Assembly (NCBI GenBank): GCA_025453395.1
Contig: JALOQK010000001.1
Coordinates: 74,244 to 138,243 of the forward strand
Length of the DNA stretch: 64,000 nt
Origin: Candidatus Omnitrophota bacterium
GTDB taxonomy: Bacteria > Omnitrophota > Gorgyraeia > Gygaellales > Profunditerraquicolaceae
Reading direction: 5' to 3'
This document shows, piece after piece, positions 4,258 to 56,942 of this stretch. The notes beneath the pieces were generated by a model. That model searched no databases and was not told the DNA's origin. It worked only from the letters and a program-made list of their open reading frames with translations. The stretch's first letter is position 1. Each line of letters opens with the position of its first letter. The position numbers and the translations under genes were made by a program.

Positions 4258-4388
4258 AGAATGAGACTTGGGTAATGGGTAGTAAGCTTAAGATGAGGGT
4301 TAGGTTGAAGAATAATTTAAAGATTTTTCCCCACAACCCACCCACACTCTCGACCCACAACCTACATCCCACGACTCACTCTTATCCT
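4258..4388. repeat. Interspersed element family A, copy 1 (G/T-rich arm followed by C/A-rich arm)
   Basis: gggtaatgggtagtaag...gagggttaggttg...ccccacaacccacccacactctcgacccacaacctacatccc; near-copies at 53286-53405 (same orientation) and 5755-5885 (inverted). Confidence 0.7.
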
Positions 4389-4535
4389 AAAAAGTTACCT
4401 TAGCTGATAAAGGCTAACCCCAGCTTCTCTTCTTCAGGTGGCGAAGACGGCGGCGCATCTTTTTTCTTTTATGCGTGCGTATCTTCTGTCTTTTTCTTTT
4501 TCTGCCGCAAGGCATCGTTTACTCCCTTCGATCGT

Positions 4536-4712
4536 AAAACTAAAAATTAAAAAGTAAAAGCGCAAAACTATAATTTAAAACTAAAAATTAAGAAAAATGC
4601 ATAAAAAACAAAAGATAAAAGTGTAAAAGATTGTATTAACGTTTTTAGTTTCGTTTTTTTAGTTTTAAATTTTAAGCTGTAGTTTTTAATTTTGCGCTTT
4701 ACGCTTTACATT
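4536..4712. repeat. Heptamer-built AT-rich palindromic element, family B copy 1
   Basis: Left arm aaaagtaaaagcgcaaaactataatttaaaactaaaaatt mirrors right arm agtttttaattttgcgctttacgctttac; abuts the hisG stop. Confidence 0.7.
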
Positions 4713-4713
4713 T

Positions 4714-5595
4714 CTAATATATGACTTTGTTCAACGGATACTCTATAATCCCTGTAGCTCCGGCTCTTTTTAATTCCGGAATAAGCGTGCGCACAACCTT
4801 CTCGTCTATAATTGTTTCCACAGCCACCCATCCGTCTTCTGAAAGGCTGGACACTGTAGGCTTTTTTAACGCGGGCAAAACAGCAAGGATCTTTTTTATG
4901 TCATTTTTCCTTACGTTCATCTTCAGGCCCACCTTAGATTCGGCAGCAATAGCTCCTTGAAGTAAAACCGCGATTTCCTCCATCTTTTGCCTTTTCCATG
5001 GGTCTTTATACGCCTTCTTATTGGCAATAAACTGCGTGGTGGATTCGCAAATCGTATCAATTATCGCCAGCTTATTGGCCTTCAAGCTTCTTCCGGTTTC
5101 AGTCAATTCCACAATCGCATCTACCAGGCCGGAACTTACCTTTACTTCAGTAGCGCCCCAGCTAAACTCCACATCCACATTGATCTTGTTTTTCTTAAAA
5201 TACTGCTTTGTCACATTAACCAATTCTGTGGCAATGCGCTTGCCGCTTAAATCTTTTGCCGATTTAAAACCCGACGCCTCCGGAACAGCCAAAACCCACC
5301 TAACCTTGCTTAAACTCTGTTTAGCGTAAACTAAGTCCGTAACCCGGACGACATCTGAAGCATTTTCCAATATCCAGTCATTGCCGGTAATCCCGCAGTC
5401 AAGCGCCCCGTCAGCGACATAACGCGACATCTCCTGCGCGCGTAAAAGCACCGGCTCTATCTGTCCATCGTCAATAGAAGGAAAATAAGACCTCTCCGAG
5501 GGCAGATTTACATTAAACCCTGCCTTGCGGAACATCTTGAAAGTCGCCTCCTGGAGGCTGCCCTTTGGTAAACCTAATTTCAGAATTTTATCCAT
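4714..5595 (-). CDS. hisG: ATP phosphoribosyltransferase, long form
   Basis: 293 aa with the HisG catalytic region ([18 protein letters not shown]) plus a C-terminal regulatory domain. Confidence 0.8.
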
Positions 5596-11577: not shown

Positions 11578-11580
11578 AAA

Positions 11581-11660
11581 AATAAAGGGGACGGTTCAAA
11601 ATAAAGGGGACGGTTCAAAATAAAGGGGACGGTTCTATTAAATAGAGCCGTCCCCATATT
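11581..11660. terminator. Bidirectional rho-independent terminator with triplicated 19-bp left arm
   Basis: (aataaaggggacggttcaa)x3 then ttaaa tagagccgtcccc; hairpin GGGGACGGTTCTA/TAGAGCCGTCCCC flanked by an A-run upstream and T-run downstream. Lies between convergent genes. Confidence 0.7.
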
Positions 11661-11677
11661 TTTGTTTTTACCTGTTT

Positions 11678-11860: not shown

Positions 11861-11960
11861 TTCTTCTTAACCTCCCCTTTTCAGTTTTCAGCTTTCAGTC
11901 TTCAGCTTTCAGCCGTCAGCAAAAGCTTTAAGCTAATAGCTGACAGCTGATGGCTGATAC
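11861..11960. repeat. Heptad-repeat palindrome (TTCAGCT x5 ... GCTGACAGCTGATGGCTGA), family F
   Basis: ttcagtt ttcagct ttcagtc ttcagct ttcagcc gtcagc | loop | gctgacagctgatggctga; a related element lies at 47305-47351. Confidence 0.65.
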
Positions 11961-19588: not shown

Positions 19589-20301
19589 TTAAGCATAAGC
19601 GCTGACATCATCCTGCCGCAAGAAACGCCTTCTTTACGATAAGAAAAATATTTATTATTATTGCAAAAGTTACACTCTTGTTTATCCTCAATGTTTCTTG
19701 GATCGACCCCCCAAGAAACTATCTGCCTTTTATTGGCATTTCCCAAATCGAAATAATATTTACCGCCTTTAAAAGTTACATCTTCGGGAAAGAAATCTTT
19801 GAATTCTTCTCCCACTTCATAGCAACAACTCTTTATGCGGGGGCCGAACCCGCAATACACGTTCTCTGGAGAAGTAGAAAACTCTTTGCGCATATATTCC
19901 AGAGTTTTTAAACATATCTGTTTTTTTGTCCCGCGCCATCCGGCATGCACTATTCCCGCGGCATGATTCTTTTTGTCATAGATAAAAACTGCTAAGCAAT
20001 CCGCGGTAAATACTGCCATGGGCAAGCCTGCGGCATTAGTAATAAAGGCATCAGTTTTATCAAAAGCGCTATCAGGCGACAACGCGCCCCTTCCAGCATC
20101 TGCTAAGACTACTTTTCTTACCATAGCAGAATGCGCCTGAACCCCGCAGGCAAGCTTCTTGTAATCTATACCCAAAAAACTTAAGAAATCTTTCCGATTC
20201 TGCAAAGAGCTTGTTGTGTCCCCGTGGGCCAAAGACATATTATAAGGCTTACTGCTTGTAGCGCAAATTAAACCTGGAAGATTAAACACGCAGGGCATCA
20301 A
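19585..20301 (-). CDS. pgeF: Peptidoglycan editing factor PgeF / YfiH (DUF152 purine nucleoside phosphorylase/laccase-domain)
   Basis: HSAMV, FTADCLAV and HAGWRGT motifs characteristic of YfiH/PgeF. Confidence 0.85.
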   Translation of the reverse strand: MMPCVFNLPGLICATSSKPYNMSLAHGDTTSSLQNRKDFLSFLGIDYKKLACGVQAHSAMVRKVVLADAGRGALSPDSAFDKTDAFITNAAGLPMAVFTADCLAVFIYDKKNHAAGIVHAGWRGTKKQICLKTLEYMRKEFSTSPENVYCGFGPRIKSCCYEVGEEFKDFFPEDVTFKGGKYYFDLGNANKRQIVSWGVDPRNIEDKQECNFCNNNKYFSYRKEGVSCGRMMSALMLK

Positions 20302-21212
20302 GATTGTTTTTCCTGTATCTTTTCCAGCTGCTGGGTAATTTTCTCCAGATGTTTAAAGCTTTCTTCAAATTTACCGCGGGTGTTATTAATATGCGCGCCT
20401 AAAGTAGTAAAATCCTCCTGAAATTTATTCATCTGAACGCCAAGCGCGCTTAACCCTTTGAGTATTGCCTTGGCATTTTCTTCTATCTGAAGCCCTTTTA
20501 AACCCATACAAATAATCTCTAGATAAGCGTAAAAGGTATTCGGTGATACCGGAATGATCTTCTTGGCAGTAAAAATACCCAGCATGTCCTGGTTGACAAT
20601 GATTTCATAGTAGACATTTTCCGCCGGAATATACATAAAAGCAAAATCATAAGTACCCTCATCAGGAAGAATGTACTTAGAGGAGATTTCGTCAATGCGA
20701 TTCTTCACATCCTGTGTAAAACGCTTACGAAAAGAATTCTTGGCGTCTTCATCAACTGCTTCCTGCAAGCGCTGAAAATTCTCTAAGCTGAACTTGGCGT
20801 CAATAGAAAGCACTTTTCCGGCAAGCTTGATTACCGCGTCCACCGCGTCGCCGGTTTTAAAACGATATTGAAGCGCGAAATATTGTTTAGGCAAAACTTC
20901 AGCTAAAAGATTTTCCAGCATCCGTTCGCCTAATTGCCCGCGGAATTTAGGCGCTCTTAAAAGCTGCTGCAAGGCAGATATATCCCGGCTTATCTCAACG
21001 ATCTGGCGGTTGGTTTCTTCCAGCTTACCCAGCTTTTCATACACCCCGCTAAACACTGTGGTGGTATTTCCAAGCGACTGGGTAAAGAATTTCCTGGCCT
21101 CATCCACCGCGCCTGTAACTTCAGAAAGCTTCTGATTGATCTTGCGGATAAGAAAAAATAACAGGCAGGCGATAAATATACCAACAATAATTAACACTAA
21201 ATTAGTTATCAT
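20298..21212 (-). CDS. rmuC: DNA recombination protein RmuC
   Basis: N-terminal TM helix, long coiled coil, C-terminal FDFAFMYIPAENVYYE RmuC core. Confidence 0.8.
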   Translation of the reverse strand: MITNLVLIIVGIFIACLLFFLIRKINQKLSEVTGAVDEARKFFTQSLGNTTTVFSGVYEKLGKLEETNRQIVEISRDISALQQLLRAPKFRGQLGERMLENLLAEVLPKQYFALQYRFKTGDAVDAVIKLAGKVLSIDAKFSLENFQRLQEAVDEDAKNSFRKRFTQDVKNRIDEISSKYILPDEGTYDFAFMYIPAENVYYEIIVNQDMLGIFTAKKIIPVSPNTFYAYLEIICMGLKGLQIEENAKAILKGLSALGVQMNKFQEDFTTLGAHINNTRGKFEESFKHLEKITQQLEKIQEKQS

Positions 21213-21235: not shown

Positions 21236-21350
21236 CATCTTTTTTATCTTTTTATTTTGGTTATTGGACATTGGTGTTTGATTATTATTTGGTTATTTAA
21301 CATTTGGTTATTGGTTATTTACTACTTTTACCTTTTTGCTTTATTTATTA
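21236..21350. repeat. 'ttggttatt'-rich element (family G, single arm)
   Basis: ttttggttattggacattggtgtttgattattatttggttatttaacatttggttattggttattt; resembles the arms of the palindrome at 33050-33240. Confidence 0.6.
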
Positions 21351-22127: not shown

Positions 22128-22236
22128 CTTAGCTAAAAAATTAAAGCGTAAAGCTAAAAACTACAGTGCAAAATTAAAAATTTTTAATTTTGAATTATGG
22201 TTTTTAGTTTTACGCTTTTAGCTTTACGCTTTTTGC
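22128..22236. repeat. Family B heptamer palindrome, copy 2
   Basis: aaagcgtaaagctaaaaactacag...ggtttttagttttacgcttttagctttacgcttt. Confidence 0.7.
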
Positions 22237-23696: not shown

Positions 23697-23724
23697 TTGC
23701 GCCTGCCTGCCGGCAGGCAGGCAA
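23697..23724. repeat. 28-bp perfect palindrome TTGCGCCTGCCTGCCGGCAGGCAGGCAA (family C)
   Basis: Exact dyad symmetry. The same 22-bp core is at 46663-46684, with variants at 33170-33191 and 24655-24690. Confidence 0.85.
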
Positions 23725-23836: not shown

Positions 23837-24088
23837 TTATCTTACCCCTTGCGCCACCTGATGCAGGATTTCGGAAATAAAAGTTTGGTATTTAACGCCC
23901 AATTGCCTTGCTTTTTGCTTAATATGTTCCAGATCATAGCTATTCACCCGGATATTCAACACCGCGTCTTTCTTTCTGGCTTCAAGCATCCGCGCGATTC
24001 TATCGTATTCCTCTTTACCCGCAGGCACAAACTCTTCAAAATGATCTTCAATCCATTGCTCCTCTTTGGTTAATTTTATCTTTCTCAT
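23837..24088 (-). CDS. brnA: BrnA-family antitoxin (ribbon-helix-helix)
   Basis: 83 aa; LNIRVNSYDLEHIKQKARQLGVKYQTFISEILHQ matches the BrnA C-terminal RHH pattern. 4-bp overlap with the upstream toxin gene. Confidence 0.75.
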   Translation of the reverse strand: MRKIKLTKEEQWIEDHFEEFVPAGKEEYDRIARMLEARKKDAVLNIRVNSYDLEHIKQKARQLGVKYQTFISEILHQVAQGVR

Positions 24089-24345
24089 ATAATCACCTCT
24101 TTCTTATAAATTTTCTTGTATTTACGACACGGATATAATGTTTTTAAGAAAATACCTTCTGCGTCAGCAACAAATGGCGCCGCCCAAACATACCCATTAT
24201 GTTCATATATCAAAATCCCTTGATTGTTCCTGCTTGGATGTTGCAGGACATCTAAAAACTTTGCTTTGACTATTTCTTCGAATGAAACGCCACGTATGCG
24301 TTTTAATCTTGCACTTTTTGTTACATTCCATCTGATTGCCTCCAT
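24085..24345 (-). CDS. brnT: BrnT-family toxin (DUF497 RNase)
   Basis: 86 aa; W..K...N..KHGVSFEE-like N-terminus (RWNVTKSARLKRIRGVSFEEIVKAKF); toxin-first gene order typical of BrnTA. Confidence 0.75.
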   Translation of the reverse strand: MEAIRWNVTKSARLKRIRGVSFEEIVKAKFLDVLQHPSRNNQGILIYEHNGYVWAAPFVADAEGIFLKTLYPCRKYKKIYKKEVII

Positions 24346-24634: not shown

Positions 24635-24811
24635 TAATGAATTTTAAATTGTGGTTTTGCCTGCCTGTCTGCCGTAGGCAGACCTACCGGCAGGTAGGCG
24701 TTTTTCGCTTTTAGCTTTACGCTAACTAAGCTCTACCCGAGCTAGTGACAATCTGTCCTGCTTCGCCATTTAACTAACAAAATATGGTATGGCTTCGCAG
24801 AGACTGCGCCA

Positions 24812-29825: not shown

Positions 29826-29912
29826 CTTAAAATTTAAAGCGTAAAGCGTAAAACCATAATTCAAAATTCAAAGTTTTTAGTTTTACGTTTTTCGCTTTAC
29901 GTTTTACGCTTT
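29826..29912. repeat. Family B heptamer palindrome, copy 3
   Basis: aaagcgtaaagcgtaaaaccataattcaaaattcaaagtttttagttttacgtttttcgctttacgttttacgctttc; overlaps the ilvC stop codon. Confidence 0.75.
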
Positions 29913-33049: not shown

Positions 33050-33240
33050 ACCTCTAATCAATAACCAAACACCAAATTACAATAACCAAATAATCATCAA
33101 ACACCAATTACCAATACCCAAACCTGTTTGGTCCATTGGTTATTGATTATTGGATATTGTTTGATATTTGCCTGCCTGCCGGTAGGCAGGAAATTTGGTT
33201 ATTGATTATTAACATTTAGTTATTGTAATATTGCTCCTTT
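33050..33240. repeat. ~190-bp 'aaccaaa/ttggtt' palindromic element (family G) containing the family C near-palindrome CCTGCCTGCCGGTAGGCAGG at 33170-33191
   Basis: Left arm aataaccaaacaccaaattacaataaccaaataatcatcaaacaccaattaccaata mirrors right arm cattggttattgattattggatattgtttgata...tttggttattgattatt. Confidence 0.7.
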
Positions 33241-34892: not shown

Positions 34893-35028
34893 GTTAGCGT
34901 AAAGCGTAAAACGAAAAGTGTAAGACTATAATTTAAAATTCAAAAATTTTAAATTTTGCGCTATAGTTTTACATTTTACGCTTTTCGCTTCTGTTTTTCG
35001 CTTTTCGCTTTTCGCTTTTCGCTTTCTA
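34893..35028. repeat. Family B heptamer palindrome, copy 4, with (TTTTCGC)x6 tandem run
   Basis: gttagcgtaaagcgtaaaacgaaaagtg...gttttacattttacgcttttcgcttctgtttttcgcttttcgcttttcgcttttcgctttc. Confidence 0.75.
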
Positions 35029-46520: not shown

Positions 46521-46656
46521 AGTGAATGAACACCGGCCCATCCGATAGGGCCGGGTGTTAGCAGTAGTGAACACCGGCCCATCCGATAGGGCCGGGTGTT
46601 AGCAGTAGTGAACACCGGCCCATCCGATAGGGCCGGGTGTTAGCAGTAGTGAACAC
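46521..46656. repeat. Tandem array, 3 copies of a 41-bp unit each forming hairpin AACACCGGCCC-ATCCGATA-GGGCCGGGTGTT, directly upstream of ptsN
   Basis: Units begin at about 46521, 46566 and 46607 (plus a partial at 46648). Unit agtgaacaccggcccatccgatagggccgggtgttagcagt. Confidence 0.85.
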
Positions 46657-46662
46657 TCCGCG

Positions 46663-46684
46663 CCTGCCTGCCGGCAGGCAGGCA
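46663..46684. repeat. Family C 22-bp perfect palindrome GCCTGCCTGCCGGCAGGCAGGC
   Basis: Identical core to 23701-23722. Confidence 0.85.
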
Positions 46685-46830: not shown

Positions 46831-46903
46831 AGCGGGAGACGGGGTTCGAACCCGCGACATCGACCTTGGCAAGGTCGCGCTCTACCAACTGAGCCACTCC
46901 CGC
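46831..46903 (-). tRNA. tRNA-Gly (anticodon GCC)
   Basis: Revcomp GCGGGAGTGGCTCAGTTGGTAGAGCGCGACCTTGCCAAGGTCGATGTCGCGGGTTCGAACCCCGTCTCCCGCT; anticodon loop TTGCCAA. Confidence 0.9.
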
Positions 46904-47304: not shown

Positions 47305-47351
47305 AAAATCAGCTATCAGCCGTCAGCTTACAGCTTACAGCTTACAGCTGA
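47305..47351. repeat. Family F heptad-repeat palindrome (ATCAGCTATCAGCCGTCAGC (TTACAGC)x3 TGATT), downstream of frr
   Basis: Shares the TCAGCYNTCAGCYGTCAGC motif with 11895-11955; the outer AATCAGCT/AGCTGATT arms pair. Confidence 0.65.
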
Positions 47352-47912
47352 TTAGATTTCCAAAACTTCTTTTTCTTTATACTTTAATAATTCTTCAACT
47401 TTAGCGGTATATTTATCCGCCGTCTTCTGCAATTCATCTATACCGCGGAATTTATCATCTTCAGAAATAGCCTTGTCTTTTTCAAGCTTCTCTATCGCCT
47501 CTTTGGCGTCGCGGCGGATAGTACGCATAGAAACCCTGCCGTTTTCCGCCATCTGATGCACAACCTTAACCAACTCCTGCCTTCTATCTTTTGACAAAGG
47601 CGGAATAGAAAGCCGGATAATTTTCCCGTCATTAGAAGGAGTAACCCCAAGGCTTGATTTCATAATCGCTTTTTCTATCTCAACAATCGCGGTTATATCC
47701 CAGGGCTGTATGGTGATAAGATGCGCGTCAGAGGCAGAAATAGAAGCCAACTGCTTTAAAAGTGTAGGGGTACCGTAATAATCCACATGCAAACCCTCAA
47801 CCAGCCCCGGATGCGCCCTGCCGGTTCTTACTTCAGAATATTCGCGCGAAACAGATTCTACCGCCTTCTTCATTTTATCTTCTGCGTTATGCAAAACTTC
47901 TTTGATAGTCAT
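47352..47912 (-). CDS. frr: Ribosome recycling factor
   Basis: 186 aa; conserved RRF sequence (VRTGRAHPGLVE, IRRDA). Confidence 0.9.
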   Translation of the reverse strand: MTIKEVLHNAEDKMKKAVESVSREYSEVRTGRAHPGLVEGLHVDYYGTPTLLKQLASISASDAHLITIQPWDITAIVEIEKAIMKSSLGVTPSNDGKIIRLSIPPLSKDRRQELVKVVHQMAENGRVSMRTIRRDAKEAIEKLEKDKAISEDDKFRGIDELQKTADKYTAKVEELLKYKEKEVLEI

Positions 47913-52177: not shown

Positions 52178-53296
52178 ATGGAAAATTTAAAACATATCTT
52201 TATTATCTGCGGAGAGGCATCCGGAGACCTGCACGCCTCTAACTTGGCAGCTGAACTAAAGAAAATAGACCCCTCTATTAAAATATCGGGTGCGGGAGGA
52301 GCTTTATTAGAAAACACCGGGGCAAACCTCTATGCCAACATCAAAGACTTCGCGGTAATGGGGCTATTTGATGTCTTGAAAAAATTACCTCAATTTTTTG
52401 CCCTCAAAAAACTCTTAATTGAGAAAATCCGCTCGGAAGCCCCTGACGCGCTTGTTTTAATTGACTTCTCCGGATTTAACTTACGCTTAGCAAAGGCAGT
52501 AAATAAATCCCTGCCGGTAATTTATTACATCAGCCCCCAGGTCTGGGCGTCAAGGCCGGGGAGGATTCAAACCATCAAGAAATATATTGATAAAATGATC
52601 GTTATCTATGAATTTGAAAAAAAATTCTATGCCAAACACGGTATTGACGCCCAATACGTAGGAAATCCTCTCTTAGATATTGTTAAAGTCCAGCAAATAA
52701 AACAAAATAATCCGATTGTGGCCCTCTTGCCCGGCTCACGCAAACAGGAAATAACATATATTCTTCCGGTAATGCTTGAAACATCCAGGCTTATTAAAGA
52801 AAAAATACCCGATGCCAGCTTCCTTATTGCCAAGCCGGTAAATCTGGATGAATCTATTTATACAGAAGCAATCAATAAATATAAACTGGATGTGCAGATA
52901 ATTTCCGGGAAAACTTATGATTGTATTAACGCGGCGAGTTTCTGCTTGGTTGCCTCTGGCACTGCCACCCTTGAAACCGCAATACTTGAAAAGCCGTTTG
53001 TTGCTATTTATAAAATGAGCTTATTAAATTATCTTTTTTACCGGCCACAGGTAAAGATTCCTTTTATCTGCATAGTCAATATTATTGCCGGCAAGAAAAT
53101 AATCCCCGAATTCATCCAATTCCATGCCAAGGCAAAAAAAATAGCCGGTGAAGTTGTTAAAACCTTGACCGACCATCAATATTACCGCCAGATCAAAGAA
53201 AATCTTGTTTCCTTTAAAGCGCTTCTTGGAAAAACAGGCGCCTCGCAGCGCGCCGCAGAGATTATTTTGAATACTGTCAGAATGGGAAATGAGTAA
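52178..53296 (+). CDS. lpxB: Lipid-A-disaccharide synthase
   Basis: IFIICGEASGDLHASNLAAELKK N-terminus typical of LpxB (GT19). Start placed at MENLKH; the longer ORF starts at 52139. Confidence 0.85.
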   Translation: MENLKHIFIICGEASGDLHASNLAAELKKIDPSIKISGAGGALLENTGANLYANIKDFAVMGLFDVLKKLPQFFALKKLLIEKIRSEAPDALVLIDFSGFNLRLAKAVNKSLPVIYYISPQVWASRPGRIQTIKKYIDKMIVIYEFEKKFYAKHGIDAQYVGNPLLDIVKVQQIKQNNPIVALLPGSRKQEITYILPVMLETSRLIKEKIPDASFLIAKPVNLDESIYTEAINKYKLDVQIISGKTYDCINAASFCLVASGTATLETAILEKPFVAIYKMSLLNYLFYRPQVKIPFICIVNIIAGKKIIPEFIQFHAKAKKIAGEVVKTLTDHQYYRQIKENLVSFKALLGKTGASQRAAEIILNTVRMGNE

Positions 53297-53405
53297 TGGG
53301 TAGTGGGTCCAAGGTGAGAATTGGGTTGAGTAAAAAACTTTAGAATTTTCCCCACAACTCACCCCCACTGTTTACCCACAACTCATGTCTAACAACTCAC
53401 CCTCA
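53286..53405. repeat. Family A element, copy 3 (overlaps last codons of lpxB)
   Basis: gagtaatgggtagtgggtccaaggtgagaattgggttgag...ttttccccacaactcacccccactgtttacccacaactcatgtctaacaactcaccc. Confidence 0.7.
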
Positions 53406-53633
53406 TTTTGGAAGGATGTTAATAAAGGTCCTTACAGAACCCTTGGGAGATTTCTTTTTGGTAAAATAAACTGTCCCGCAAGCTATCGCGTAGACAGTCC
53501 CCTCTCCTTTAACATTTTTCCCGGCCTTGTAGCGATTAATCCCCCGGCAAAGAATAGTGCCTGTTTTAACCGGCTGCCCTTGGGAAACTTTTAAAACTTC
53601 ATCTTTTTTTCCAGTTGCTTTACCGCCTGCCAT
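53403..53633 (-). CDS. rpmA: 50S ribosomal protein L27
   Basis: G..V..G.I..R..G.....G.NV..G.D.T..A...G.V.F pattern (GQPVKTGTILCRGINRYKAGKNVKGEGTVYAIACGTVYF); 76 aa. No rplU adjacent. Confidence 0.7.
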   Translation of the reverse strand: MAGGKATGKKDEVLKVSQGQPVKTGTILCRGINRYKAGKNVKGEGTVYAIACGTVYFTKKKSPKGSVRTFINILPK

Positions 53634-53657: not shown

Positions 53658-53762
53658 TTTAGCTTAAAGCTAAAAGCGAAAAATTAAAAATCATAATTCA
53701 AAATTTAAAGTTTTTAATTTTACACTATAGTTTTTCGCTTTACGCTTTACGTTTTGCGCTTA
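53658..53762. repeat. Family B heptamer palindrome, copy 5
   Basis: ttagcttaaagctaaaagcgaaaaattaaaaatcataattcaaaatttaaagtttttaattttacactatagtttttcgctttacgctttacgttttgcgct. Confidence 0.75.
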
Positions 53763-55175: not shown

Positions 55176-56834
55176 TTAGATATCGTAGGTTGAATAAAAA
55201 TAAGGAGTGTACGCTTCAAACTCTGCGGCGCAGGTGTCTACTAATTTAAATGATGGGACAACCCCTAAAGATTTGCGCAGAACACAGATTTCTTCTTCGC
55301 TTTTGCCAACTAATTCCCCAAGCTGCTTATCGCTAAAACCGTATTCCTTGGCCTTTAAAATAAGTTCTTTATCCAAGGTATTTGCCGACGATATTTCTTT
55401 TTCGAATTGGATAATTTGCTTAATATTATGTATAAACCAGGGGTCTATTTGGGTTAATTCATGGATTTTACTTTCATCCACTCCGGCACGCAAAGCATCT
55501 CCGATATAAAATATCCTCTCGGCGTAAGGCACTCTTATTTTATCATAAATAGTCTTTAAGGCTTCCGCGGACGGATTAATATCTTTTGCCCCCTTAAAAA
55601 GAATGCTCTCCAGGCCGGATTTCTTAATTTCAAGCGAACGCAAGCCTTTTTGCAAGGCCTCCTTAAAAGTCCTTCCAATAGCCATCGCCTCGCCCACGGA
55701 TTTCATAGAAATATTAAGCCTGGGGTCGGCCTTAGCAAATTTCTCAAAAGTAAAACGCGGTATTTTCACCACGCAATAATCAATGGACGGCTCAAAACAA
55801 GCTGGAGTCTGTTTAGTAATGTCATTGGGAATTTCATCAAGGGTATACCCGACAGAAAGTTTGGCCGCGATCTTAGCGATAGGAAAACCCGTTGCCTTAG
55901 AGGCAAGCGCGGAGCTTCGCGACACCCGCGGGTTCATTTCAATGACCACCATTCTTCCAGTTGCGGGATGCACGGCGAATTGTATATTTGAACCGCCTGT
56001 CTCAACGCCGATTTCCCGAATACAAGCTATGGCAGCGTCACGCATCTTTTGATATTCTTTATCGGTTAAGGTCTGGGCTGGCGCAACCGTAATACTATCC
56101 CCGGTATGCACACCCATGGGGTCAAGATTCTCAATGGAACAAATGATAACCACATTATCTTTGGTATCGCGCATAACCTCAAGCTCAAATTCCTTCCAGC
56201 CTAAAACCGATTCTTCGACAAGTATTTCGCTTATCATGCTTGCTTCCAAGCCTGTGCGCGCCAGGCCTTTGAACTCTTCCATGCTATAAGCAATGCTTCC
56301 GCCCGTGCCCCCCAATGTAAAACTAGGCCGGATAATTATTGGGAACCCTATCTTCTTGGCTATTGCAAGGGCTTCTTCAATATTGTAGGCAAGCCCGCTC
56401 TTGGGAAGATCAAGCCCGATTTTCTCCATTGCCTGTTTAAAAAGTTTTCTGTCTTCGGCTTTCTTAATCGCCTTGATGTTAGCTCCGATAACTTCCACTT
56501 TATATTTCTTTAAGACGCCTTTCTCTGCTAAACCAACTGCGGTATTCAAAGCTGTCTGCCCGCCAAGCGTGGGCAGAAGCGCGTCAGGCAATTCCTTGGC
56601 AATAATTTTCTCCACCATCTCCACAGTGATCGGCTCAATATAAGTTTTATCCGCCATCTGCGGATCAGTCATGATCGTGGCCGGATTAGAATTAACCAGG
56701 ATTACTTTGTATCCTTCCTGCCTTAGAACCTTGCAGGCTTGAGTGCCGGAATAATCAAATTCACAGGCCTGGCCGATAACAATCGGGCCGGAGCCGATAA
56801 TCATGATTTTCTTAATGTCTGTGCGTTTGGGCAT
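55176..56834 (-). CDS. carB: Carbamoyl-phosphate synthase large subunit, N-terminal half only (split carB: first ATP-grasp plus oligomerisation domain)
   Basis: [25 protein letters not shown] start; ends ...[24 protein letters not shown], exactly where full-length CarB begins its second ATP-grasp domain. No second half in any frame downstream. Confidence 0.8.
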
Positions 56835-56840
56835 ATTAAA

Positions 56841-56942
56841 AGTGTAAAATTAAAAGCGCAAAGCGTAAAATTAAAATTCAAAACTAAGAATTTTGAGCTT
56901 TAAATTATGGTTTTTAGTTTTTCGCTTTTCGTTTTTCGCTCT
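56841..56942. repeat. Family B heptamer palindrome, copy 6
   Basis: gtgtaaaattaaaagcgcaaagcgtaaaattaaaattcaaaactaagaattttgagctttaaattatggtttttagtttttcgcttttcgtttttcgctc. Confidence 0.75.

Follow-up and report, generated by a model that had tools for sequence, protein, structure and literature searches.

A 20-nt palindrome of an Omnitrophota genome, found across bacterial phyla and phage contigs, and its probable partnership with small GIY-YIG nuclease genes at tRNA genes

Why does a perfect GC-rich palindrome recur between unrelated genes of a bacterial genome? The question is raised by a 64-kb stretch of DNA (the window, at its full length) from a metagenome-assembled genome (MAG) of Candidatus Omnitrophica (Omnitrophota), located on a contig of 272,391 bp. 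It is a housekeeping stretch whose genes, nearly all on the minus strand, include ilvD, ilvB, ilvN, ilvC, leuA, malQ, genes of the phosphotransferase system (PTS), rpsB, tsf, frr and carAB. A palindromic insertion element of 20 bp, CCTGCCTGCCGGCAGGCAGG, is represented at its four palindrome sites by solo copies that are non-autonomous. We consider it likely that this palindrome serves as cognate hairpin repeat to GIY-YIG proteins of ~77–88 amino acids that form a very large family and are encoded at tRNA genes, with the window copies as solo members; the nuclease-plus-hairpin system is selfish or domesticated and widespread, and not a local regulator site.

Copy 1 is the perfect 22-nt palindrome GCCTGCCTGCCGGCAGGCAGGC at 23701-23722, with the 20-nt core at 23702-23721, and the same 22-mer makes up copy 2 at 46662-46683. 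A preliminary description of the window had recognised the exact 22-nt palindrome, which was borne out at both positions, but it had placed the second copy one position off (46663-46684) and had extended the first to a 28-bp palindrome with TTGC...GCAA ends (23697-23724), whose outer bases turned out to be 2 nt out of register. Copies 1 and 2 have the 27-mer GCGCCTGCCTGCCGGCAGGCAGGCAAT in common. Copy 3, at 33171-33190, is the core with one transition (C>T; CCTGCCTGCCGGTAGGCAGG); the single mismatch formerly ascribed to 33170-33191 thus holds for the core, while the 22-mer has two. The TTGGTTATTGATTATT blocks around it (33136-33151 and 33195-33210) are direct repeats and not the arms of a ttggtt palindrome, in which the copy had been thought to lie. 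This copy was reproduced by an independent Logan assembly (L001, run SRR12684589). Copy 4, GCCTGCCTGTCTGCCGTAGGCAGACCTACCGGCAGGTAGGC, had been taken as a rearranged version at 24655-24690; a degenerate composite is indeed present, at 24659-24699, with the layout CCTGCCTG-TCTGCC-GTA-GGCAGA-CCTACCGGCAGGTAGG, and reads as decayed or nested copies. In the window the element is usually 22 bp long, comprising the 20-bp core and one extra G:C pair. The 22-nt dyad has a G+C content of 82%, so it is not GC-only as described, and that of the genome was computed to be ~43% instead of roughly 40%. With up to three mismatches to the 22-mer allowed, three matches were found in the window against 0.00 expected from 100 dinucleotide shuffles, confirming that the motif is highly non-random; further copies or half-sites were not found in the 64 kb. 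All four sites are non-coding (4/4, with a non-coding share of the window of 7.9%; P ~4e-5), as had been stated.

The settings of the four copies differ. Copy 1 has on one side the canonical minus-strand terminator (23822-23788) that serves the upstream gene and on the other, ~90 nt further on, a promoter-like site (23615-23587) that belongs to the gene at 23582-23031. Copy 2 is located between tRNA-Gly (46831-46903, minus strand) and a gene for a PTS-EIIA (PtsN)-like protein, copy 3 in the ilvD-ilvB spacer within a TTGGTTA/TTGATTA heptamer-periodic array, and copy 4 between the malQ stop (24812) and a canonical terminator (24575-24540, minus strand). Since copy 1 sits after a terminator and copy 4 before one, the element has no fixed place in the transcription unit. 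Folding predictions give the single-stranded palindrome a stable hairpin with a GC stem of 8–10 bp, in regions at -8 to -19 kcal/mol (z = -2.2 to -3.5). The ordinary terminators of the genome are of the U-tract type, as in the two minus-strand examples just given, and the combination that marks an intrinsic terminator, a GC hairpin with a direct T-run at a gene's 3' end, was not found at the window copies: no T-run follows on either strand beside the three clear copies, and a terminator scan returned only a 6-bp sub-hairpin in the composite (24683-24698), on the strand opposite to the genes. The earlier opinion that this is not an ordinary terminator is upheld. A dedicated regulatory role of the window copies is improbable, and whatever the hairpin does as RNA or DNA would be secondary. 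Rfam 15 at gathering threshold detected only tRNAs in the window, and tRNA-derived flanks were not found around the window copies.

GTDB r232, with one genome per species, was scanned for the 20-mer, allowing either C or T at position 13 (CCTGCCTGCCGGYAGGCAGG), which revealed at least 120 loci in the representative genomes. According to the depositors' labels, the carriers are mostly low-GC Bacteroidota genomes and many lineages of Patescibacteria, besides Omnitrophota, Planctomycetota, Nitrospirota, Bdellovibrionota, Chloroflexota, Ignavibacteria, Thermodesulfobacteriota/'delta' and uncultured Gammaproteobacteria; among the Bacteroidota are cultured members of Winogradskyella, Flagellimonas, Olivibacter, Longitalea and Flavivirga. 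The 20-mer is thus present letter for letter in about ten bacterial phyla and is not confined to the window sites, as local duplication would have it. Most carriers have a G+C content of 32–50%, and the chance expectation is far below one. Some caution is needed with the depositor taxonomy of loci from MAGs. The contig of locus L095 (CAZFVS010000055.1), for example, is labelled as uncultured Gammaproteobacteria, and its TrpS is 77–83% identical to proteins of Candidatus Daviesbacteria; because of this resemblance the contig is probably mis-binned. Viral contigs of IMG/VR contained the exact 20-mer in 35 stretches, whereas two control palindromes of matched composition and 4-nt period (GGACGGACGGCCGTCCGTCC and CCAGCCAGCCGGCTGGCTGG) occurred 0 and 0 times. 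Some MAGs account for several palindrome loci, and six copies lie on a single phage contig of 29.5 kb. The core is identical across phyla and phage contigs and the flanks are unrelated: apart from A/T runs, the loci had no 12-mer other than the core in common, and no longer conserved element was seen. A literature search found no paper with the 20-mer.

The open reading frames (ORFs) of the 120 loci listed were clustered all-against-all, and one family stood out by its closeness to the palindrome (median distance, 63 nt). It consists of GIY-YIG proteins of 77–88 amino acids, and decayed GIY-YIG fragments lie beside further copies of the palindrome. In these partner genes of other genomes, Pfam PF01541 (GIY-YIG) spans almost the whole protein, the nearest solved structures are UPF0213 and SLX1, and the annotation reads only "GIY-YIG nuclease family protein" or "putative endonuclease". 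A five-member alignment was then used to collect relatives from JGI metagenomes by protein pattern alone, and the best 80 of 553 were kept. The palindrome is almost always present beside these nuclease genes: it was found with at most one mismatch within 140 nt in 54 of the 80 loci, usually ending 10–50 nt before the start codon, and as a recognisable variant (a 19-nt form, CCCGCC forms, nested forms) in 12 more. Most of the remaining 14 contain decayed or nested copies, and one or two lack any. An A precedes the palindrome in 58 of 65 GIY-linked copies. The family is very large, with more than 7,700 90%-identity clusters among 8,000 candidates scored. The canonical 20-mer occurs throughout the protein tree and stays constant across phyla, despite divergence of the protein partner to ~45–55% identity, and no co-variation of protein subclades with palindrome variants was seen.

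The second constant neighbour is a tRNA gene. In about 70 of the 80 loci, a tRNA gene is encoded on the same strand no more than a few hundred nt away; most often it begins 3–25 nt past the stop codon of the nuclease gene, and in a mirror layout the tRNA gene lies just upstream of the nuclease gene and the palindrome in a downstream tRNA copy. Throughout the 80-locus set the palindrome disrupts a redundant tRNA copy, never the intact one. The nuclease gene lies between the intact tRNA gene and this copy. The nuclease gene has a palindrome on both sides in L124, L139, L142, L147 and L171, and the whole unit of pseudo-tRNA fragment, palindrome and GIY-YIG gene forms tandem arrays in L139, L142, L150 and L171. 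In L139 the pseudo-tRNA fragment differs from the adjacent intact tRNA. Rfam 15 again detected only tRNAs in ten of these cassette loci, and no paper was found that ties small GIY-YIG genes, tRNA genes and the palindrome together. In a Thermodesulfobacteriota MAG (L090, 2790-4895), a GIY-YIG domain of the family lies in frame inside an ORF similar to HsdS of type I restriction systems, preceded by the palindrome read as PACRQAG.

The pseudo-tRNAs allow a comparison of filled and empty sites, the pseudo-tRNA copy being the filled site and the adjacent intact tRNA the empty one. Among 43 metagenomic loci analysed in detail, the left flank stopped at a tRNA position X and the right flank restarted at X in 38; the insertion amounted to exactly 20 nt, without duplication or loss of target, in these 38 comparisons. 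In the curated complete WWE3 genome of L053, for instance, the partial tRNA-Lys copy reads GTGGTAGA-[20-mer]-GCAGCGGC and the intact tRNA-Lys 260 nt downstream reads GTGGTAGAGCAGCGGC. Likewise, the pseudo-tRNAs of L026 and of L094, which has two insertions, differ from the intact tRNA by exactly the 20-mer. Position X was 20–24 in 26 of the 38 mapped loci, that is, from the end of the D-loop to the start of the 3' strand of the D-stem, 31–32 in five, 14–15 in five, 39 in one and 10 in one. On the cloverleaf, these positions are helix (loop/stem) junctions. Miniature inverted-repeat or other elements derived from insertion sequences (IS) have terminal repeats around an inner segment and a target duplication; here the unit consists of two arms only, and no duplication was seen in the 38 comparisons.

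Insertions were found outside tRNA copies as well. About one third of the genomic copies lie within open frames of at least 120 codons, and the plausible genes among them (encoding FtsK, TrpS, RfbB, a histidine kinase and others) all use the xLPAGRQ frame. TrpS of L095 has a seven-residue insert, GLPAGRQ, which is absent from the TrpS structures in the PDB and from all eight nearest homologues (77–83% identity); in the DNA it corresponds to 21 nt, a G plus the 20-mer. Younger copies are nested within older ones, at CCG^G of the loop in L027, L060, L066, L113, L138, L188 and L201 and at the mirror position in L021 and L033. A phage tRNA-Met with the 20-mer in its variable loop (L227, 2239-2330) is still called a tRNA by ARAGORN. 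The 20-mer mimics a long variable arm there, and the same combination of tRNA-Met and 20-mer, with an extra deletion after the palindrome, was noticed near 8616 of L204 in IMG/VR. The element is preceded by A, G or C and rarely by T. These data show that the 20-nt core is a discrete insertion, 21 nt when in frame in genes, without target-site duplication.

How would such a unit spread? By analogy with the binding of the NTS hairpin by SsnA, the nuclease would bind the hairpin of the palindrome in single-stranded DNA (ssDNA) and nick unpaired or helix-junction positions, typically 3' of an A. The nicks could then let new copies be pasted in, by ligation of the excised hairpin or by template switching, and copies would pile up wherever they are tolerated, for example in intergenic spacers, in pseudo-tRNA copies and in the loops of proteins. 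Because insertions lie at cloverleaf junctions after A and in the element's own loop, and because the ends of the unit are the ends of its own stem, the targets are suggested to be folded single strands nicked at junctions of single- and double-stranded DNA. Nicking at such junctions is typical of enzymes of the GIY-YIG/SLX1 type. The cassette itself may move by recombination with tRNA genes, the carried pseudo-tRNA fragment serving as homology, which is suggested since this fragment can differ from the adjacent intact tRNA (L139); tandem arrays would be a by-product. Taken to its end, and here we are tentative and lean slightly towards doubt, the 20-nt hairpin may be the smallest autonomous-looking mobile DNA unit, cut and pasted on ssDNA by a nuclease of ~80 amino acids at helix-junction or unpaired positions, without target duplication and with boundaries set by base pairing; the gene would ride as a tRNA-targeting cassette of ~300 bp by means of the carried tRNA fragment, and the pair would have crossed about ten phyla and phages with an invariant DNA partner. 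If this is true, the pair sprinkles a seven-residue LPAGRQ insert into proteins and 20-nt arms into tRNAs.

Several observations weigh against the reading of the palindrome as the cognate hairpin repeat of the GIY-YIG family. GIY-YIG enzymes are hydrolytic and, to our knowledge, have no strand-transfer or ligation activity, which leaves the paste step without a demonstrated enzyme. A GIY-YIG gene is absent from the 64-kb window (family HMM in six frames; Pfam scans of 59 ORFs), and the nuclease lies beside the palindrome in none of the eight Omnitrophota loci recovered. Solo copies keep the rule of a 5'-A weakly (56% vs 44% expected), and insertion into pre-existing hairpin loops had to be rejected as a general rule for them, as such loops hold a minority of 8% (controls 0.6%). 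Outside the core, 3 + 4 flanking bases agree between the two exact copies of the window, whereas a strictly 20-nt unit predicts none, and the closest relatives of MalQ are only ~62% identical, so that an empty-site comparison is not available for the four sites of the window. Finally, the published pattern of the Ssn-related motifs (SRM), the hairpin repeats of the Ssn nucleases to which we return below, is HGTCWYN(0-2)YYVSBRHN(0-5)WNVSBRGN(0-2)RNCYNB (PMC11893778); it was matched by 0 of 65 GIY-linked copies and by no site in the window.

These points make it worthwhile to ask if the palindrome could do without the nuclease. It might spread or arise by replication and repair of the host, through template switching at the hairpin or slippage of CCTG, with the GIY-YIG cassette merely carrying a copy as a hairpin of its 5' untranslated region or as a transcription signal. 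Around 95% of the genomic copies are in fact solo, only 5–7 of 127 being near a GIY-YIG gene, the arms are made of CCTG units of which nested or expanded versions occur, and in many cassettes the palindrome is only 10–19 nt from the ATG and therefore within the mRNA leader; the want of a known paste enzyme also speaks for a host process. Yet a general mutational process should not favour one sequence in about ten phyla, and the two matched palindromes were missing from the viral contigs that yielded the 35 stretches. Furthermore, the same 20-mer was inserted independently at differing positions of differing pseudo-tRNAs beside the nuclease gene, and the Ssn enzymes, which are related, do bind their cognate hairpins and cut there (PMC11893778). 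We therefore regard an origin by host repair alone as unlikely. Even less probable, in our view, is a selected cis-element at operon boundaries, be it the operator of a dimeric regulator that the preliminary description had offered, a site for RNA stabilisation or processing, or a factor-dependent terminator. Such a role would fit the intergenic position of all four window copies, their stable predicted hairpin and the 27 nt shared by two of them. It does not fit the neighbours, which are unrelated (hypothetical/CopG, malQ, ilvD-ilvB, tRNA-Gly/ptsN), nor the inconsistent placement relative to terminators and promoters (site 1 after, site 4 before a terminator) without a T-run, nor the identical 20-mer in other phyla and phage contigs, in coding frames and in pseudo-tRNA copies.

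The preliminary description had also considered a repetitive extragenic palindromic (REP)-like element and had expected a REP-associated tyrosine transposase (RAYT) as partner. Its first half survives, in that the palindrome is repeated at dispersed places between genes, forms a hairpin and goes with a nuclease family of its own; the partner is of another kind. Short length, high G+C content, intergenic position and several copies per 64 kb would all suit a classical REP/REPIN mobilised by a RAYT (Y1, HUH) transposase, but no transposase of any kind, Y1/RAYT included, was found in the window (62/63 ORFs checked), the GTAG/CGTC tag is missing, REPs are species- or clade-specific and this palindrome is identical across phyla, and the linked gene is a small GIY-YIG nuclease gene in 80 of 80 independent loci chosen by protein; the chance that this is a classical REP is very slight. 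That the palindrome is an artefact of assembly, adapters or amplification can be practically dismissed. Many carriers are MAGs, contigs from short reads often end near such repeats, and L001 itself ends ~65 nt past the palindrome, inside the adjoining repeat array. Against this, cultured isolates and a curated complete genome carry the palindrome too, the independent Logan assembly agrees, and on either side ordinary genes run on without a break; in genes, the marked preference for the in-frame LPAGRQ reading and the length of 21 instead of 20 nt bear the mark of natural selection.

Other repeats crowd the window. Heptamer-periodic arrays (CTTTTTA, TTTCAGC, TTGGTTA/TTGATTA, TTTTCGC/TTTACGC, CAGCTTA) fill many intergenic gaps, at 2405-2448, 4535-4715, 11879-11957, 21271-21320, 22131-22233, 29828-29912, 33063-33210, 34896-35026, 47307-47353, 53665-53761 and 56832-56940, and often form long quasi-palindromes of up to 2 x 50 nt. 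They recall the heptamers of the short tandemly repeated repetitive (STRR) sequences of cyanobacteria, and the palindrome has similar flanks, with a period of 7–8 nt, in unrelated genomes and phage contigs (L067, L106, L203/L232, L224, L226). A perfect 3.2 x 41-nt tandem repeat of hairpin units (CACCGGCCC ATCCGATA GGGCCGGGTG) at 46527-46656 lies directly upstream of the PtsN-like gene and abuts copy 2. At 11579-11664, a perfect 3 x 19-nt tandem repeat, AAAATAAAGGGGACGGTTC, is followed by an inverted partner and looks like a multiplied terminator after the gene of a 979-residue protein. A 128-nt repeat pair with 73% identity (4258-4385 and 53279-53406) is 49 kb apart. Between copies 1 and 4, a toxin–antitoxin-like gene pair (23837-24345) encodes a CopG/NikA-like protein of 83 amino acids and one of 86 amino acids without a Pfam match. 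Another gene of the window (20298-21212) belongs to the RmuC family, which is notable where so many spacers are palindromic, as RmuC reportedly restrains recombination at short inverted repeats.

The results account for a conspicuous intergenic repeat of poorly known lineages (Omnitrophota, Patescibacteria, Bacteroidota), which annotation pipelines ignore; palindromic repeats of this kind also break short-read assemblies. The Ssn paradigm of a nuclease and its hairpin is extended to a second, very large clade with a different, perfectly symmetric and invariant DNA partner, and the palindrome offers itself as the candidate site of an ssDNA nuclease with a new specificity. The filled and empty sites, dozens in pseudo-tRNAs and one in TrpS, together with the nested copies, are direct genomic evidence for discrete insertion of a hairpin repeat, and they define target rules (after A, at loop/stem junctions). 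The tRNA cassette with its palindrome-disrupted duplicate is a strategy not described before, by which a minimal selfish gene can settle in an essential locus and yet not destroy it, and the constancy of the 20-mer next to a diverged protein represents an unusual evolutionary constraint.

How does the system compare with known ones? Rickettsia palindromic elements measure ~100–150 bp and are confined to Rickettsia, whereas the element described here has 20–21 nt (seven residues) and crosses phyla. The GC clusters of yeast mitochondria and the PstI palindromes of Neurospora mitochondria are very short, GC-rich units in AT-richer intergenic DNA, sometimes in genes, and are often nested or clustered. 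Such organellar palindromes are lineage-specific, and we know of no nuclease gene family demonstrated to be linked to them. The likeness to them and to fungal palindromic microsatellites (PMC7218506) lies in the very short, GC-rich and often nested palindromic units. With REP/REPIN and RAYT and with the "peel and paste" elements of the IS200/IS605 type, the system has in common short, GC-rich, intergenic, dispersed palindromes, a single-copy dedicated nuclease gene flanked by them and ssDNA hairpins as likely substrate. Unlike RAYT, the enzyme is a GIY-YIG (hydrolytic) and not an HUH (covalent intermediate) nuclease, and REP palindromes have a conserved GTAG or CGTC tetranucleotide at one end (PMC3733652), of which there is no trace in the unrelated flanks here, nor is the sequence clade-specific. 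A free-standing GIY-YIG gene among tRNA genes is also known from phage T4, whose homing endonuclease SegB is encoded in the tRNA gene cluster; cleavage in tRNA DNA by SegB drives inheritance and can yield segmental amplification (PMC2330249, PMC13096335), which recalls the tandem arrays of L142, L171, L139 and L150. SegB is larger, has a DNA-binding domain, cuts double-stranded DNA and lacks a cognate dispersed palindrome.

The closest parallel is the pairing of Ssn nucleases with NTS/SRM hairpin repeats (Chenal et al., Nat Commun 2025, PMC11893778), to which the dRS3/NTS repeats of Neisseria belong. Ssn are single-domain GIY-YIG proteins (cd10448) that bind cognate hairpin repeats; SsnA of N. 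meningitidis binds the NTS hairpin and cuts only ssDNA beside it, SRM flank ssn genes and occur in hundreds of copies, and the authors note an IS-like NTS-ssnA-NTS layout and hypothesise that the gene is behind the expansion of the repeat (PMC11893778). The two systems agree in a single-domain GIY-YIG protein of fewer than 100 amino acids (published criterion, <150; 77–88 in our family), in a gene flanked by a hairpin-forming inverted repeat of 20–50 nt (54/80 canonical, most others variants) and in wide phylogenetic spread. The repeat may be dispersed in a like manner, mostly between genes, with four copies in the 64-kb window, all intergenic. In a plasmid collection one weak match only was found, which could be used as an Ssn-type positive control: L238, on plasmid pRheCIAT894e of Rhizobium sp. 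CIAT894 (585719-587313), has a GIY-YIG gene for 94 amino acids with five flanking copies of CGTCATCCCAGGGCTTGACCCTGGGATCCA in 1.6 kb, and the SRM pattern detected the five copies around it. It is a textbook Ssn/SRM locus and adjoins an IS4 transposase gene. The profile of our family aligned with the 94-residue protein in hhalign with 97.2% probability (E = 4e-11, 32% identity), the similarity to UPF0213 structures being about equal. Judged by these profiles, the nuclease genes are kin to both UPF0213/SLX1 and the Ssn ssDNA nucleases, and the system, placed by profile alignment, would thus work like Ssn/SRM while lacking one defining feature, the motif.

The differences lie on both sides of the partnership. 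The proteins are shorter (77–88 vs 94 amino acids) and have a KSGxGKE C-terminus. The CCTGCC motif, a perfect palindrome, has no direction and lacks the conserved GTCAT box upstream, and it is identical across phyla instead of co-diverging with the protein. The genes reside at tRNA genes with a duplicated, palindrome-disrupted tRNA copy, whereas tRNA is not mentioned in PMC11893778, and exact filled and empty sites and in-frame coding insertions were found for a mobility that is only hypothesised there. In sum, what is new relative to Ssn is the invariant perfect palindrome, the tRNA-gene cassette and the evidence for discrete insertion, including insertion in frame in proteins.

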